From positions 1,664,001-1,728,000 of the forward strand of contig OZ243972.1 of NCBI GenBank assembly GCA_965214705.1: a stretch of 64,000 bases of DNA. Direction: 5' to 3'. The DNA is from Alphaproteobacteria bacterium. Lineage in GTDB: Bacteria; Pseudomonadota; Alphaproteobacteria; UBA828. Position numbers and translations under genes: made by a program. Below, piece after piece: positions 28,513 to 35,510 of this stretch. Numbering within the stretch: the first letter of the stretch is position 1; each line of letters starts with the position of its first letter. The notes below the pieces were generated by a model that saw only the letters and a program-made list of their open reading frames with translations, searched no databases and was not told the origin of the DNA.

Positions 28513-29502
28513 TCAGGGGTCGAGGCGGACGACACCGTTCTCCACCAGCACGCGGTCATCGAGGCGGACGGTCGGGCAGTAGATGACCATGTCGAGATGG
28601 ACGGGACAGCGCACCGTGCCGCCGTAATAGATATTATCGCCGAAGGCGATGTGGACGTTGCCGCGCGCCTTCTTCTCTTCCTGGAAGCTGCCGTTACGGA
28701 GGCACACGCCGTTGAGGCCGATGCCGAACTCGGCGATGTTGTCGGCATCGGGCACCGTCTCCAGTATGTGGCGCAGATGCGCAGCCTCGGGCCCCTCGCC
28801 GCTCACGCTCACGGCCCGACCGCCCCGCACCTCAACCCGAATCGGGGTTGCGGGCCGGGCGATGCCGGTGCCCGGCCCGTCAATCACGATTACGCCCTCG
28901 GCCTCGCCCTCCAGCGGGCGAGAGGAGACCTCGCCGTCGGAGAAGGCGGCGTTCTTCCCCGGCGCGGTCGCGTAGCCGCACTCTACGACTACGGTGTCGG
29001 AGCCGATGGGCGCGGCGATATCGGTACCGGCTTCCGTCGTGATGCGCATGGTATGCCCGGCGGCCCAGAGTGCCGCCAGCGCCTGTCCTTCGGCGTAGAG
29101 CGCTCGGTAGTCGGCCAGCGCGCCGCCGCCGGTGAAGTTCGAGAGCTCGCGCATGACCATGGACATGGTGCGGATGCGCTTCTCCGTCAGCAGCTCCTTG
29201 ACGCGGGCGGCATAGGCCGGCGCGCCGCCGGAGCCGGTCAGGCTGATCAGCACGTCGGTCTTCTCGAACGCGGCCTCGACCATCGGGCTCAGCTGGTTCT
29301 TTCGCTCCGGCGGGCGCGAAGGCTGATGGAGGATGGCCCACTCCGCGTCGGCCGAGGCCGCGACGTTGGCAAGCGCTCGGACCATCTCCATCGCGCTGTG
29401 ATCGTCGACGACGATTGCCACGGTCTCGCCGGGCCTAATGGCGAGCAGCTCGCGCCCGACGAGGCGGGCGCTCTCGGCCACGTCGATGGTCGCCGGCGCC
29501 AT
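28513..29502 (-). CDS. Aminopeptidase T (M29)-like metalloprotein
   Basis: DGEV, IAEFGIGLN, EEKK..GNVHIAFGDN, HLD. Confidence 0.75.
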   Translation of the reverse strand: MAPATIDVAESARLVGRELLAIRPGETVAIVVDDHSAMEMVRALANVAASADAEWAILHQPSRPPERKNQLSPMVEAAFEKTDVLISLTGSGGAPAYAARVKELLTEKRIRTMSMVMRELSNFTGGGALADYRALYAEGQALAALWAAGHTMRITTEAGTDIAAPIGSDTVVVECGYATAPGKNAAFSDGEVSSRPLEGEAEGVIVIDGPGTGIARPATPIRVEVRGGRAVSVSGEGPEAAHLRHILETVPDADNIAEFGIGLNGVCLRNGSFQEEKKARGNVHIAFGDNIYYGGTVRCPVHLDMVIYCPTVRLDDRVLVENGVVRLDP

Positions 29503-32068
29503 GAACCTTCTCTCTTGCCCCTACCCGCCATTTCGGAGGGCATTAGTCGATTTGACTCGAGATTTCTGTTGCCTAGGCTGCACAAAGTGGCACGAGGCAC
29601 AACACTTGTCCGTCGCACCGGCGGAAGAAATAAACCATATGTTGAAATGCTCGGAGCATCCCACCTCGCGGACATTTGGGCGGTCCCGGCTACATCATCC
29701 GCGCTGGACCACAGGATAGACCGAAAGCCCAAAATCAGAATCTCTGCCTGTCAGGTTGAGGTTCCCTCAACCACCACCGCCGCAGAGTGGGACGGGCATC
29801 TGGATCGCGTAGCCGCGAAGATTCGGATGTACCTGGAGCGCGAGCACCACGAGAGCGACGACCACGTGGCGCTTGCCGTTGCGGTTTTGCAGCAGGCGGG
29901 GCGATGGACGCGGTCTTCAGACCCTTTGTCGCTGCTCACTCCGATATGGATGATGATCCAAGCCCCAGCCCGTACGTAACCGTTCGCTCAAACCATGGAG
30001 AACCGGATTGGGAGAGACAAGAAACAGCCGCGATTTCAGCGAACCAAGCGGCTGCGCGCGCCTACGTCACTCGTCGACGGGTCGGGTCCACGGTCTGAGC
30101 AAACGGTTACGCCCGTACCGGCTTGGCCGAACCTTTACCTCCCTGCGTCGACCAGAGTACGCATCAGATCGAAATGAATCGGTACCTATTTGGTATCTGG
30201 AGATTGAGGCTGAAGCCAAATATGGAAAGAGGGTGATACATAACATGCTGCCAAATAACGATTAATCGGATCAGCCTATAGTGTGTGCTGGGCAGCGCCC
30301 AGATCAGGTGGGTTCAAGTCCCACTGGCGCTCGGGTAAGGGGCGCCATATCCAAAAGTGGGGGTAATTCCTCACTGGCCGGAGTGAGCCGATAAGCGAAA
30401 CTCTAAACGGGCACGAAGCCGGAAACGGCGGAGACAGCCAAGGGAGGAGCTAAGTTGGTCCACTGTCGAAAGACAACCGGAAGGCAGGGTGTCCACCGCG
30501 AGGTGGAATCTGAAGGGCTTGCGGAGAAGTACCGGGCCGTAATCGAGGGGGCCACCCCATGATGAATCGGTCGGCCAAAGACGGGGCAAGGTCGAGCCGG
30601 CACTATGGCGGCGAAGGCGTTCTTACCCACCCGTCGCACCAAGGTGTTTGCGAGCGGCACGGTACGGAAGATCTGGACGTGACCCCAGGAGGGCTCGCCG
30701 CGTTCCCGGGTGGCACCGGGATAACGGACCCTATAAGCCGAAAGGCGAAATGGGAAAGGATGCGCGGCGAGCAATCGGACAACCGAATAGTACCTGAAGC
30801 CCGGCGAAAGCCGGGTGACCGCGCGAGCGGCGGCCGTGTGGGCCGGGGAAGGCGGTTGGCAGAGGTGGTCGGCGAGAGACAGCGATGAGTGAGTAAGGAC
30901 CATGACGCGGACAAGTTCCTTGAGCGAAAGACCCGGACATCATGGCCCGAGGAGACTCATCGACTGGATCAACCCGGCGGGTGACAGGAAGGTCCACTCA
31001 CTGGTGGACAAGGTGTACAAGCGGAAGAACCTTGAGGTGGCCTGGGAAAAGGTGAAGCGCAACCGGGGTGCCGGTGGCGTGGACGGAGAGGATTTAGCGG
31101 CGTTCGAGGCATCGCTGGATGCAAATCTCGATCGCCTGCACCGGGAGTTGCGGGACGGTGAGTATCACCCGCAGCCGGTTCTCCAATGCCTGATCCCCAA
31201 GGCGGGCCAGCCGGGGAAGTTCCGCCCGCTCGGCATCCCGACAATCTACGACCGGGTGTGCCAGCAGGCGCTGCTGAACCGGCTGGAACCGATCTTCGAG
31301 CCGGTGTTCGACGATGCCAACTACGGGTACCGGCAAGGAAGGTCTGCCCATGGAGCGTTACGCAAGATATGGAGGGAACTGGACGAGGGCAACGAGTGGG
31401 TTCTCGATGCGGATTTGAAAGACTTTTTCGGGTCCGTGGACCACGAAAAGCTCCTCGAACTCGTCAACCAGCGAGTCTCGGATGGCCGGGTATTAGGTCT
31501 GCTCAGGCAGATGCTCACGGCCGGGGTGGTGGCCGACGGTAAGAGGCTGCCGACCGAACAGGGCACTCCGCAGGGCGGCATCGTTTCACCGCTGCTCAGC
31601 AATATCTTGCTGACCCCGTTCGATTGGGAAATGCGTCGTCGCGGCTATCGACTAACGCGATACGCCGATGATTGGCTGATCACGTGCCGCACACGCGGGG
31701 AAGCCCGCGCAGCACTGGAGACGGCCAGGCGGATTCTGGCAAAGCTGGGTGTGTCCCTCAACGCCGGGAAGACCCGCATTGTCCATGTCAGGCACGGGTT
31801 TGAGTTCCTCGGCTACAAGATCAAGCAGGGCGAGCGGCCTCTCCGGCTGTCGTCCTCCAAGATCAAGAGCGGGGTTCGCGGGGGAGCGCGCTACGCGGTT
31901 CCGCGTGAGAAATCCATCCGGCACTTCAAGGACCAGATTCGCCAGCGTACCCGGCGCAAGGCTCCTGTCAGCACGCAGGAGCTGATTGACGAGATCAACC
32001 CGATCATTCGGGGATGGGGCCAATACTATTGCAAGGCCCACGTCCGCGGGCTCTTCCACCAGCTTGAC

Positions 32069-33747
32069 GGGTGTAGGTCTGGCATGGCGATCGTAAGTCA
32101 TTGATTTAGCGCGATTGGCGGGTGGCCGTAGGCAGCCAGAATCGGGTTTTCGTGACAATCGGCCGGTGCAGGGCCGGATTTTGTCACAACGGCGGCATCC
32201 AGCAGTGGTGGGTGGGAACGCTCCGCACCGCGAGATGCGGTAGGATGCCGCGCCGACAACCCAACATCAGACCCAACATCAGGAGCGTTCCCATGCCAGT
32301 GTCGCAGTCTCTCATCGCCTCGTCCATCGACCTTTTGGGCCTGCCTGCCGAAGTCGCCGAAGCGGTCGCCCAGGTGGTGGAGTTCTGTCGCGAACAGGCT
32401 GGGTCTGACCCGTCTGCCGAGACGTTCGAAACGGTTGAGACGGGGCTGCGGGACGCCATGAACGGCTTGGGTTGCAAGCTCCTTGGGGCCTTCGCCGAGA
32501 GCCGCGACGACGGTGCGAGCCGGATCGAGCGCGACGGACAGAGCTGGGTCCGGGTGGCGGCGACGCCGAAGACGATCATGACGACGCTCGGTCCCGTGAC
32601 CTATCGGCGTGCGCGCTATCGCAGCGGCGCGAGCAGCACGTCGCTGGTGCCGGTGGACGAGAGCCTGGGCCTCATCGACGACTACCTGACGCGGCCGGCG
32701 GCGCAGCTCGGGCTGATGATGATGGGCCACTGTACGCCGCGTGAAGCGGAGGAGTTCTTCGCGAAAATGGGCGGAATGACGCCGTCGGTGAGCACGCTGC
32801 AGCGCCTGGCCCTGAGCATGCATGAGCACTGGGAGAGCGTCGCCCCGGAGACGCTGGCCAGCATCCGTGAAACCCAGGGCATACCGCCCGATGCGGTCAC
32901 CGCGTCCGTCTCCCTTGACGGCGTCATGGTGGCGCTGCGGGCCGGCGAGGACGGCCGTGCCGAGGCGTGCTGGCGCGAGGCCTCTTGCGGCACGGTCTCC
33001 TTCCACGACGCCGAGGGCCAACGGCTGAAGACCCTCTATCTCGGCCGTATGCCCGAGAGCGGCAAGGCCGCGCTGAAAGCGCAACTTGCAAGCGAGGTCG
33101 CCCATATCCGCCGTGTGAGCCCGAAGATCAGGATCGGCGCCGTCGCCGACGGGGCCGCCGACAACTGGACCTTCCTCGAAAGCCTCTCGCCCGAGACCGA
33201 GGTCATCGACTTCTGGCACGCTTGCGAGCATCTCCGCGTGGCCTCTGACCATGCGGTGGCGCGCCACTGGTTCGAGAAGCACCGCGAAATCCTGCGCCAC
33301 GACCCCCGCGGCGTCGACAAGGTGATCCGGGCACTGCGCTACCTCCTGGACAGGGCAAAGGGGGACCCGGCCGAGATCGAGCGCGAGCTGGCCTTCTTCC
33401 GAAAGCACCGCCATCGGATGCGCTACCACGCCCTGAAGGAAGAGGGCATCGCCATCGGCTCGGGTGTGGTCGAGGCGGCCTGCAAGACCCTCGTCGCGCA
33501 GCGCTTGAAACGCTCGGGCATGCGCTGGCGGATCGACGGCGGGCAGGCGGTTCTGACCTTCCGCGCCCTGATCAAATCCGGCCTCTTCGACCGGGCATGG
33601 GATGCGCTCATGGACGCCCGATCCGGACCAGCTAACGACAACATCAGCCCAACCGAAGTCCTGGCACTCGCTGCTTGACCAAAATGAACCAGCCCATATC
33701 CTTTAGCGCCATCACGACTGGCATATCGCCATACGAGAATCACACCC
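32069..33747 (+). mobile_element. ISKra4/ISLre2-like insertion sequence
   Basis: Imperfect TIRs GGGTGTAGGTCTGGCATGGCGAT / ATCGCCATACGAGAATCACACCC; 8-bp TSD AGCTTGAC at 32061-32068 and 33748-33755. Confidence 0.92.
32293..33678 (+). CDS. ISKra4/ISLre2-like (Mutator-like) DDE transposase
   Basis: SLDGV, ADGAADNW, DFWHACEHL, IGSGVVEAACK...RLKRSGMRW; AGGAG RBS. Confidence 0.88.
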   Translation: MPVSQSLIASSIDLLGLPAEVAEAVAQVVEFCREQAGSDPSAETFETVETGLRDAMNGLGCKLLGAFAESRDDGASRIERDGQSWVRVAATPKTIMTTLGPVTYRRARYRSGASSTSLVPVDESLGLIDDYLTRPAAQLGLMMMGHCTPREAEEFFAKMGGMTPSVSTLQRLALSMHEHWESVAPETLASIRETQGIPPDAVTASVSLDGVMVALRAGEDGRAEACWREASCGTVSFHDAEGQRLKTLYLGRMPESGKAALKAQLASEVAHIRRVSPKIRIGAVADGAADNWTFLESLSPETEVIDFWHACEHLRVASDHAVARHWFEKHREILRHDPRGVDKVIRALRYLLDRAKGDPAEIERELAFFRKHRHRMRYHALKEEGIAIGSGVVEAACKTLVAQRLKRSGMRWRIDGGQAVLTFRALIKSGLFDRAWDALMDARSGPANDNISPTEVLALAA

Positions 33748-33993
33748 AGCTTGACGGCTGGATCGTGCGGCGGCTCTGGTCGCATTGTCGCAAGCGCTGG
33801 CGCAACGCTGGCTGGAAACAGTTGCCGGAGCGCAAGCTGATCGACGAATACGGGCTTGTTCGCCTGATCTCACTGGTTCCGTCCTTGAACCTTCGTTGAG
33901 ACACCTTTGTGAAAGCGGCTTACGGGAAAACCGTACGGGCCGTTTGAGCGGCGGACGGAGGCTAGCCTCGCGGGGCGCCTCCTCCGACCCGAC

Positions 33994-35510
33994 AGCAATG
34001 AAGCCGGCGAACAACGGCCCCTCGGGGCCGGCGGAGCCGGGGGAGCGAAGGGGCGGACCCAAGGGCAATCCGAAAGGCCAAAGCTCGCGCCGCGCGCAGA
34101 AGCGGGGAAGCGAGTCACAGGCGGCCGACCGGATACGACAGGCTGCAAAGAGGAACCCGGATGAGTGTCTCGTGGCGCTCCTCCACCATGTGACGGTTGA
34201 CTGCCTGCGCGACGCGTACCATTCGCTGAGAAAGGACGCGGCAGCGGGGGTGGACGGCGTCACGTGGGAGGCATACGCCGACGGGCTGGAAGATCGCTTG
34301 GTCGACCTGCACGGGCGTGTGCACAGGGGGGCGTATCGGGCGCCGCCGTCGCGGCGGGTCTACATACCCAAAGAGGACGGGGGACAACGACCGCTCGGCA
34401 TCGCCTCGCTGGAGGACAAGATACTCCAGCGGGCGGTGACGGATACGATTCTGGTGCCGATCTACGAGACGGAGTTCCTCGGCTTCAGCTACGGCTTCCG
34501 GCCGGGGCGGGGGACGCATAACGCGCTCGACGCCGTGGCGGTTGGAATGGAACGGCGGAAGGTCAACTGGGTCGTTGACGCCGACATCCGCGGGTTCTTC
34601 GACAATCTCGGGCGGGACCACCTGGTCGGGATGCTCGAAAGGCGCATCGGAGACACGCGGGTCATGCGGCTGATCGTCAAGTGGCTGAACGCCGGCGTCA
34701 TGGAAGGGACCGACTGGACGGACACCGGCAGGGGCGTTCCGCAGGGTGGGATAATCTCACCCTGCCTCGCCAACGTTTACCTGCATTACGTGCTCGACGA
34801 CTGGTTCCACAACACATGGCGCAAACGGACGGCAGGAGGCGACACAATCATCGTGCGATACGCCGATGATTTTGTGTGCGGCTTCCAGCACGAGGGCGAC
34901 GCGAAGCGTTTCCTCCGGGACCTCGGCGAGAGGCTGGCCCAGTACGGACTGGAACTGCATCCGGGCAAGACCCGGCTCATCGAATTCGGCCGCTACGCGA
35001 AAGCGAACCGCCGGACACGGGGGCAGGGCAAGCCGGAGACGTTCGACTTCCTTGGCATGACGCACTTCTGCGACCAGTCGAGGAAGGGACGGTTCAGGGT
35101 CGGCCGCAGGCCATCCCGGAAACGGGTCAACCGCACTCTGCGGGGGATCGCGGAAAGGCTGCGCAAGCGCTGGCACGACAACCGGCACGAGACAGCGAAG
35201 TGGCTGGGAAGGGTCATCGACGGCTGGCTCAACTACTACGGCGTACCCGGGAGCGGCCGCTATCTGGTGCGGTTCGTGCACCAATGCAAACGGCTGCTCA
35301 TGCGTGCCCTGCGGCGAAGGTCCCAACGGGACCGCACCGCGTGGGAGGATATCAATCCCCTCACTGCTGCCCACTGGCCCAAGGCCAGCATCCGTCATCC
35401 GTGGCCGAACCAGCGGCTTGTCGTCAGGACCTGAGGGAGGAGCCGGATGCGAACAGCGCCCGTCCGGATCTGTGCGGGGGGACCGGGGCAACCCGGTTCC
35501 CTACCGCGAT
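33994..35510 (+). mobile_element. Group II intron B, 3' portion (from mid-domain III to 3' end)
   Basis: Begins AGCAATGAAGCCGGCGAAC (DIII-like); DV GAGCCGGATGCG...CGTCCGGATC; DVI ending CCTACCGCGAT at 35510. Confidence 0.85.
33998..35434 (+). CDS. Group II intron RT/maturase B (start uncertain)
   Basis: RPLGIASLEDK, GVPQGG, VRYADD, ETFDFLG; frame intact; no endonuclease domain. Confidence 0.88.
   Translation: MKPANNGPSGPAEPGERRGGPKGNPKGQSSRRAQKRGSESQAADRIRQAAKRNPDECLVALLHHVTVDCLRDAYHSLRKDAAAGVDGVTWEAYADGLEDRLVDLHGRVHRGAYRAPPSRRVYIPKEDGGQRPLGIASLEDKILQRAVTDTILVPIYETEFLGFSYGFRPGRGTHNALDAVAVGMERRKVNWVVDADIRGFFDNLGRDHLVGMLERRIGDTRVMRLIVKWLNAGVMEGTDWTDTGRGVPQGGIISPCLANVYLHYVLDDWFHNTWRKRTAGGDTIIVRYADDFVCGFQHEGDAKRFLRDLGERLAQYGLELHPGKTRLIEFGRYAKANRRTRGQGKPETFDFLGMTHFCDQSRKGRFRVGRRPSRKRVNRTLRGIAERLRKRWHDNRHETAKWLGRVIDGWLNYYGVPGSGRYLVRFVHQCKRLLMRALRRRSQRDRTAWEDINPLTAAHWPKASIRHPWPNQRLVVRT

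Follow-up and report, generated by a model that had tools for sequence, protein, structure and literature searches.

Group II introns live in other mobile DNA, and homing elements choose conserved sites that are hard to mutate. The closest described systems are introns nested in introns (twintrons). In Thermosynechococcus elongatus, TeI3 (F3) introns are reported inside TeI4 (F1) introns, at a site in domain IV between the first two ATGs of the host open reading frame (ORF); the inner introns have no ORF, belong to the same family and are found in one genome (PMC2882425). The nested introns of Methanosarcina acetivorans, which we know from the title of the report and from a review, undergo repeated site-specific homing into a perpetual homing site and form nested arrays; their targets are the ORFs of related introns and not an RNA motif shared across classes (PMC4424553). 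In the Trichodesmium Tery_4732 twintron the inner intron lies in a ribozyme domain, domain I, and sequential splicing was shown, but this is a single locus and no lineage-wide target is evident from the account available (PMC4649490). Here we describe intron A, a group II intron in a 64,000-nt stretch of an alphaproteobacterial genome (contig OZ243972.1, positions 1,664,001 to 1,728,000; the whole stretch analysed is called the window). In this element two ideas meet: the conserved site that is chosen appears to be the catalytic core of a ribozyme of its own kind.

Intron A very probably represents a clade of mobile introns of IIE/IIF-like type without an endonuclease (En) domain, which home to the junction of domains II and III (J2/3) and to domain III (D3) of other group II introns. 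As in T. elongatus, twintrons would be the route of proliferation (PMC2882425), and the inner intron was found at the same site in several outer introns, as expected of a twintron. In contrast to T. elongatus and M. acetivorans, the target is not in domain IV or in the ORF of the intron-encoded protein (IEP) of close relatives but in the D3 loop of unrelated host clades. The lineage has an IEP of its own, uses a site in the D3 core, and occurs in hosts from at least four IEP clades and three Rfam D1-D4 families in about ten phyla. In B-type hosts (see below) the insertion site is 5' of the host ATG, inside the D3 helix.

Monophyletic intron groups tied to one context are described as well, namely IIC introns at terminators and attC sites and IIB1 introns at start or stop codons, e. 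g. of groEL, and in this respect they resemble A (PMC12584367). The context of the A lineage is another intron's catalytic core, and the specialised groups named in the portion of that study available to us include none that targets introns (PMC12584367). Homing into introns and context-bound lineages are thus known; a clade aimed at a conserved motif of the ribozyme core across intron classes we did not find described. No D3-homing lineage appeared in the full-text literature searched, a search that key older papers, the intron database and supplements lay outside. According to their descriptions, two intron-collection pipelines lose or exclude twintrons by dropping loci with two reverse transcriptase (RT) genes (PMC4028801, PMC8919778). 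Such elements and their outer introns have therefore probably been under-counted, which may explain why no earlier description was found.

The features of intron A in the window are as follows.

30283 to 33993, plus strand: intron A, group II, En-less, IIE/IIF-like, with GUGUG 5' end, domain V, domain VI and 3' AC
30596 to 30612, plus strand: hairpin of exon-binding site 1 (EBS1), from a weak Rfam D1D4-3 alignment, stem covariation and covariation of EBS1 with intron-binding site 1 (IBS1)
30775 to 30858, plus strand: intron A's own J2/3 and D3, from an alifold of 25 lineage members and a single-sequence fold
30902 to 32070, plus strand: N-terminal part of the IEP gene (RT and start of X), Pfam RVT_1 2.4e-40 and GIIM 1.4e-13
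33758 to 33899, plus strand: C-terminal part of the IEP gene with the stop codon at 33897-99, from alignment to an intact copy
33913 to 33945, plus strand: domain V, fold z = -3.7, with AGC triad at 33914-16, CG bulge at 33936-37 and GAAAA loop at 33926-30
33950 to 33993, plus strand: domain VI; its bulged A is at 33987, 7 nt before the end, and the 3' splice site reads ...GAC

Intron A starts with GUGUG at 30283 and ends with ...CCGAC at 33993, i. e. it has the GUGYG and AY termini of group II introns, and its RT/maturase is encoded within domain IV. Both boundaries are fixed by 20 copies in the genome and by empty sites. The 3' exon begins at 33994 (AGCAATGAAGCC). In the initial annotation the end had been set to 34030, which must be corrected to 33993; the 3' exon text given there (AGCAATG...) already implied a start at 33994. 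The base that follows ...CGAC is A in 20 of 20 genomic copies, and the next base is variable. Without an inserted insertion sequence (IS) the intron measures 2024 nt, and 713 nt without the ORF. The intact reference copy lies at G000:C3:26838-28861. Its IEP (P0001, 436 aa) reaches 383.8 bits with TIGR04416 (cut-off 300) and ends after X; Pfam and TIGR04416-type profile searches found no En/HNH domain in the IEP of intron A.

The EBS1 hairpin consists of GCCG (30596-99), the loop GCACTATGG (30600-08) and CGGC (30609-12), with EBS1, ACUAUGG, at 30602-30608. The initial annotation had read ACTATG(G) at this position as the EBS1 that pairs with the 5' exon, and this was borne out: the exon end CUAUAGU (30276-30282) forms seven pairs with it, one of them G-U. 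A location outside the d3 loop had been named as a finding that would speak against this assignment. Rfam D1D4-3 places ACTATGG in an Id3-type hairpin loop, although weakly (21.4 bits, E 0.74, below the gathering score of 32 bits), and stem and loop covariation agree with this. The stem reads GCCG/CGGC, GCCU/AGGC, GCCC/GGGC, GCUG/CAGC or GUCU/AGAC among the relatives.

In the genome assembly (7.9 Mb in 3 contigs, 67% GC) we counted 21 5' ends of intron A and 20 3' ends. The copies of the 5' end are at least 99.8% identical with the exception of one diverged copy (C1:2015067), which has a 16-nt deletion and seven substitutions; among the 20 full copies, 19 show 0-5 differences from the reference, two variable sites being common to many of them. 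Ten copies have the intact length of 2024 nt, nine are interrupted by an IS or another insertion, each at a different place, and the IEP frame is open over its full length in 15. The copies occupy 14 distinct insertion sites. Ten of these sites, with 17 of the 21 copies, lie in other group II introns, and always at the identical spot: 3' of ...YCRUAGU and 5' of A(G/C)C, in the D3 internal loop. The hosts of the ten sites are B, B', B'', B''', the flank in the window, C, D, a truncated D-like intron, E and F. B, B', B'' and B''' are related host families with 70-80% mutual identity; C, D, E and F are four further families. By Rfam, B, B'' and D are of the D1D4-6 type (122-154 bits) and F of the D1D4-4 type (84 bits), and hosts C and E match the domain V model Intron_gpII with 51-64 bits.

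Precise empty sites were found for B (two, C3:2105696 and C3:2192299), for B'' (two), for E (four identical and two at 94%) and, at 80%, in four F-like introns without ORF. The latter (C3:1418305, C3:2066794, C1:1330948, C3:383002) have about 300-400 nt from D3 to domain V and are 80% similar to host F around D3; all four are unoccupied. Since near-identical copies of A reside in hosts that are only 70-80% identical or unrelated, the insertions are recent and independent, an argument that was applied in the same way to Thermosynechococcus (PMC2882425). Among 30 relatives of this genome the lineage was present in one other, of the same genus, with two copies at 92% identity; the 21 copies found here thus reflect a recent burst.

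Of the other explanations for this distribution, passive multiplication fares best, but we consider it improbable. By this account hosts that already carried A were moved or duplicated as composite twintrons, and the copies would then say nothing about the choice of target by A. Within a host family such composite moves could have happened, as B' is occupied in five of five copies and B in three full copies, and the polymorphism at position 570 of A partly tracks the host family, all B and B'' copies having T and four of five B' copies G. Composite mobility was also considered possible for the Thermosynechococcus twintrons (PMC2882425). Yet near-identical A is present in about nine host families from three Rfam D1-D4 families, A is found in three sites outside introns too, and B, B'' and E each have empty as well as occupied copies. 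Furthermore, the same site is used in unrelated hosts of other phyla, together with covariation of EBS1.

To locate the site within the host ribozyme, host flanks were joined in silico, aligned by class and folded; the 5' end of the B''' row, with one extra base, was disregarded. The alignments agree on a single layout, in which J2/3 (GUC-N-GA, at about -18 to -13 from the insertion point) is followed by the 5' strand of the D3 basal helix (-12 to -6). The 3' strand of this helix is found 35-64 nt downstream of the site, behind a conserved GGAG-N-GAAGG, and the segment between the strands comprises AUAGU, the A that follows the insertion point, and a distal hairpin. Covariation of the basal helix was seen in host classes I, II and IV (for example CUCGGCC/GGCCGAG, UUCGCCC/GGGCGGA, UCUGGCC/GGCUGGA, CGGGUCC/GGACCCG, GUGCCCC/GGGGCAC); in class III it is short. 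It is visible in the class-wise alignments only: a brute-force search for helix partners of -14 to -6 gave 5.9 bp against 5.4 bp in shuffled sequences and was uninformative.

From these alignments and folds we take the insertion site to be the D3 internal loop, with IBS1 overlapping the top of the D3 basal helix. This agrees with the initial annotation, which had named domain III of other introns as the target; the site is between the 5' strand of the basal helix and the distal hairpin, just 3' of J2/3.

The corresponding region of intron A adopts the same D3 fold as that of the hosts. Its own J2/3 is UCGGA at 30775-79, and TCGGA...AATAGTACC (as RNA, UCGGA...AAUAGUACC) spans 30775-30794. The basal helix is formed by CAACCG (30780-85) and CGGUUG (30853-58), with AAUAGUA at 30786-30792, where the point equivalent to the insertion site precedes the last A. 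An alternative folding of this motif as a UCGG-ACAA-CCGA hairpin was dropped, as J2/3 and the CAACCG/CGGUUG helix came out of the 25-member alifold and of the fold of the single sequence alike. At the variable J2/3 position intron A, whose last base is C, has G, and host B, whose last base is U, has A; in these two cases it behaves as would be expected of the gamma nucleotide if established knowledge of gamma-gamma' holds here. The J2/3-D3 word of the Oceanobacillus iheyensis IIC intron is very similar.

Beyond this genome, relatives of the IEP were scanned in one genome per species. We found 63 loci with IEP identities of 50-93%, in about ten phyla according to their record titles. Four complete plasmids, all from cultured strains, carry the lineage as well: Cupriavidus necator N-1 pBB2, Paraburkholderia hospita, Bradyrhizobium sp. 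62B and Microvirga. The initial annotation had held that homologues at sites unrelated to D3 would refute it; the same D3 motif is used here and in about ten phyla. From 45 non-redundant 5' flanks and 59 non-redundant 3' flanks a target profile was derived. On the 5' side it has C at -6 (41/45), R at -5 (45/45), U at -4 (43/45), A at -3 (39/45), G at -2 (42/45) and U at -1 (43/45), and on the 3' side A at +1 (56/59). A second peak covers -18 to -14, with G in 31, U/G in 41, C in 35, any base, and G in 37 of the 45 flanks.

The pairing of EBS1 with IBS1 comprised all seven possible pairs in 26 of 38 members, six in ten and five in two. Compensatory changes occurred in several combinations: ACUUUGG with CCAAAGU (L025), ACCAUGG with CCAUGGU (L040/41), ACCAUGC with GCAUGGU (L029), AUUAUGA with ..GUAAU (L015/16) and AGUAUGG with CCGUAUU (L013). 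The member L033 is wholly retargeted (CCACCGU with ACGGUGG) and lies in a non-intron site. These flanks show that the choice of target is set by the 7-bp EBS1-IBS1 helix and the conserved A at +1. Within single metagenome-assembled genomes (MAGs), near-identical hosts were seen that differ by one base of IBS1, and their inner introns by the matching base of EBS1 (L014/L025 and L021/L040).

An RT gene on the same strand was present in 28 of 52 3' flanks; it starts within about 250 nt of the end of the inner intron except in L045 and the nested L064. Of the 24 negative flanks, six were shorter than 500 nt, and several others were D3-like with no detectable ORF. Among the hosts in other genomes are introns of the D1D4-6 type (L074, 182 bits) and one of the D1D4-3 type (L076, 140 bits), which brings the host RNAs to three Rfam D1-D4 families. 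The L076 host starts directly after a hairpin and T-run, the classic class C position. L074, on Cupriavidus necator N-1 pBB2, is an intron of 3600 nt with an annotated IS110-family transposase gene inside and a host of the D1D4-6 type, and on the Bradyrhizobium sp. 62B plasmid two ltrA genes are annotated back to back.

A quick maximum likelihood tree with midpoint root was calculated from the ORFs of 67 loci, P0001 and our own hosts B and C; ORFs with less than 380 aa or 300 aligned residues were dropped, which left 37 lineage and 18 host rows. The 37 lineage IEPs group together in a single clade (SH-aLRT 100, stem length 0.83), whereas the 18 host IEPs split into at least four clades. L029 and L033 are sisters inside the lineage and thus look like a secondary escape from the D3 target. 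The lineage tree is discordant with taxonomy, as MAGs labelled Gemmatimonadales and Gammaproteobacteria share identical IEPs. L019 and L020 have identical lineage IEPs in MAGs of different phyla. We take this as a sign of horizontal transfer or of errors in binning.

These results suggest the following mechanism. EBS1 ACUAUGG pairs with YCRUAGU, i. e. with the two uppermost bases on the 5' side of the host D3 basal helix and the conserved AUAGU of the internal loop, and reverse splicing would take place after the U and before the conserved A, which would act as IBS3. The excised RNA-IEP particle presumably reverse-splices into DNA (DNA retrohoming). Since no endonuclease domain is present, a pre-existing primer would be needed, and other En-less introns are reported to use such primers (PMC4424553). 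Once inserted, the inner intron parts the two strands of the host D3 helix, and the host ribozyme would be inactive until A is spliced out. Because the motif belongs to the ribozyme core it recurs across intron classes, and hence one element can colonise many unrelated hosts, which would offer A harmless and mobile places to live. Targeting of D3 would explain how a single En-less intron spread across many phyla and unrelated hosts.

The 8-nt core is not sufficient, as the genome contains 558 unoccupied YYRTAGTA words; a second determinant must therefore exist. A J2/3-like word was read in the flanks of three of the four non-intron sites used by A, compared with 33 of the 558 unoccupied sites (5.9%). 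The second, weaker determinant could thus be the host J2/3 (GUC-N-GA), probably read by the IEP. We regard a contact between IEP and J2/3 as the best guess because no EBS2 was found and because -8 to -13 is a variable helix strand. Extra contacts stabilised by the RT are described for IIB introns (PMC8643678), and EBS2 is reported to be dispensable for splicing in IIE/IIF introns (PMC3753933).

The same figures bear on a further explanation, which we rate as slightly less probable still than passive multiplication: that A is not adapted to introns at all, its word of about 8 nt merely occurring in D3 and insertions elsewhere being purged by selection. The core word is indeed short, four of the 21 copies are outside introns, L033 was retargeted by a change of EBS1 alone, and bacterial introns are said to persist mainly in mobile DNA in general (PMC12584367). 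However, about 90 of the unoccupied words are in copies of an IS where an insertion should do no harm, the distal J2/3-like motif is retained at non-intron sites well above background, and the preference for D3 was kept across a clade with a long stem branch and widely diverged IEPs. Insertion at the RNA level, by which A would reverse-splice into lariats or precursors of the host intron and be fixed by reverse transcription and recombination, is very improbable: although EBS-IBS pairing works on RNA as on DNA and the host introns are abundant, stable RNAs with an RT of their own, access should be poor in the folded host RNA, where the D3 basal helix takes up -7 and -6 in pairs and the loop belongs to the core, non-intron DNA sites are used as well, and DNA retrohoming is the established route (PMC8643678).

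Homing of A into D3 thus remains the preferred reading, and several observations weigh against it. Four of the 21 copies lie outside introns at three unrelated sites, showing that the specificity for D3 is not absolute, and the lineage members L029 and L033 are retargeted elsewhere. Suitable sites have been left unoccupied, namely two in B, two in B'', six in E and five copies of another intron-like GGAAUCUGACUCGGUCGUAGUA. The high-copy IS mentioned above (about 90 places, e. g. C1:79634) carries GGCCAGATGTTCCTGTAGTAG, which matches EBS1 at seven of seven positions with two wobbles and has a J2/3-like word upstream, and it was never occupied. When 25 members were searched for stretches of D1 that could pair with -8 to -22 as EBS2, no consistent column emerged. 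RF00029 did not match the domain V of the window intron at E<=1. Most of the foreign loci are on MAG contigs, and in these, repeats are often assembled or binned wrongly. The class was assigned as IIE/IIF-like on only two traits, and splicing, mobility and the order of splicing are deduced from the sequences.

Some of these points can be qualified. The never-occupied IS amounts to a negative control provided by nature and gives a hint that strand, spacing or further contacts play a part; a loose regular-expression search for J2/3 and D3 was dominated by it. An 8-bp match of the GGAAUCUGAAGG region to UCAGAUUC of the B host was tried as a candidate EBS2 and, being present in only two of 25 members, was taken as chance. 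Other copies of intron A and its relatives score 29-42 bits with RF00029, and the pentaloop of domain V probably lowers the score of intron A. Such a pentaloop is described as a IIE/IIF trait, and the further traits that A has in common with class E/F introns are the lack of En, a small ribozyme, the 3' AC and a crucial EBS1 (PMC3753933). The size of the ribozyme is given as 450-700 nt for IIE/IIF (PMC3753933), so that the 713 nt of A are within or just above this range. The available text of the same source makes no mention of class E/F introns being located in other introns (PMC3753933). Relatives in a Geobacteraceae MAG (72%) and a Bryobacterales MAG (82%) give a hint as to class only.

The initial annotation further proposed that the intron avoids its own kind, as its own D3 mismatches EBS1. 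The D3 heptamer of the lineage is mostly GAAUAGU, and when own D3 and own EBS1 were compared in 35 members, five of seven pairs were possible in 21, four in 11, six in two and two in one; 32 of 35 thus form four or five pairs, and 33 of 35 no more than five. The pairing with the own D3 was always worse than or equal to that with the real target, and the own D3 position is uninterrupted in all 20 copies of this genome. On the other hand, targets with five of seven pairs are in use (L031, L023, and a GATAGT site at C1:511638), and L064, on a Terriglobales MAG contig, shows the 3' end of one lineage member followed by the 3' half of the D3 of a second. We rate self-avoidance, which would be brought about by the lineage-specific GA at -7/-6 of the own D3, as plausible and supported only in part. 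L064 is a nested array similar to those of M. acetivorans (PMC4424553): the region of the ORF start of the second member is interrupted by a B-like intron, whose D3 contains an odd 14-nt insert at the usual site.

A wider interpretation, which we put forward tentatively and to which we give less than even weight, is that the lineage is a generalist clade of hyperparasites whose target, the almost invariant J2/3-D3 core (GUC-N-GA ... AUAGU|A), the hosts cannot easily mutate away, with the GA as self-protection, an arms race with the hosts and possibly a brake on other introns. By the interruption of D3, splicing of the host would come to depend on the prior excision of A. The idea of an arms race is based on the D3 variants AAAGU and AUGGU of hosts within single genomes (L014/L025, L021/L040), which are matched by EBS1 ACUUUGG and ACCAUGG. 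In any case the lineage offers a natural system in which to study sequential splicing, how introns compete, how a target is recognised when no clear EBS2 is present, and whether an intron may be immune to its own kin.

The copy of A in the window differs from the others in its surroundings, for which three further features are needed.

30265 to 30282, plus strand: 5' exon remnant, J2/3-like (TCGGA) and 5' strand of a D3 basal helix, from the sequence and seven EBS1 pairs
33994 to 35510, plus strand: host intron B from the D3 internal loop to the 3' end, 99.9-100% identical to five other B copies
32071 to 33745, plus strand: ISKra4-like IS of 1675 bp inside the IEP gene, NF033572 ISKra4 168 bits (cut-off 205), UPF0236

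Downstream of A the host B continues with the 3' part of D3, the IEP ORF from an in-frame ATG at 33998 to 35434, and domains V and VI at 35438-35510. It matches RVT_1 and GIIM, TIGR04416 with 339 bits and RF00029 with 34 bits. In the B-type hosts this ATG (33998-34000 in the window), kept as AUGAAG(C/U)C, is 5 nt downstream of the insertion site and within D3; the frame of the B-type IEP may thus start inside D3.

Upstream of A, only about the last 18 nt (30265-30282) resemble host J2/3 and a D3 strand. The group II D1-D4 models had no match in 29300-30282, although intact B scores 154 bits, which rules out that this flank is the D1 of the host; that it is part of a nearby IS110-like element was likewise ruled out. 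The initial annotation had read the joined exons as one D3 motif. This is correct for the 3' exon, which is host B from D3 onward, whereas the 5' flank is not the matching half and agrees over the said 18 nt only. The segment at 30149-30264 (116 nt, of lower GC) has a sole paralogue of 82% identity at C1:2152155-2152270 and is not intron-like by Rfam. The window copy is dead and rearranged: an IS lies in its RT gene and the 5' half of its host is lost. It carries the position-570 allele typical of non-B hosts and is possibly a recombination product between copies of A; the reciprocal product was not found.

The ISKra4-like IS, absent from the initial annotation, has its transposase ORF at 32122-33678 and is flanked by a 12-bp direct repeat (32059-70 and 33746-57). 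The window therefore shows an IS nested in an intron nested in an intron. About 30 copies of this IS are present in the genome, four of them within copies of intron A at different positions. A second IS concerns the copy at C1:2614328. There, an IS5-like element of 1210 bp (G000:C1:2613122-2614327) sits exactly in the IBS1 between host B''' and A, with an ATAG/TTAG duplication, so that TTCAGACTTTCC upstream of A, at first taken for the host J2/3, turned out to be the inverted repeat of this element, and the true B''' half ends at C1:2613121.

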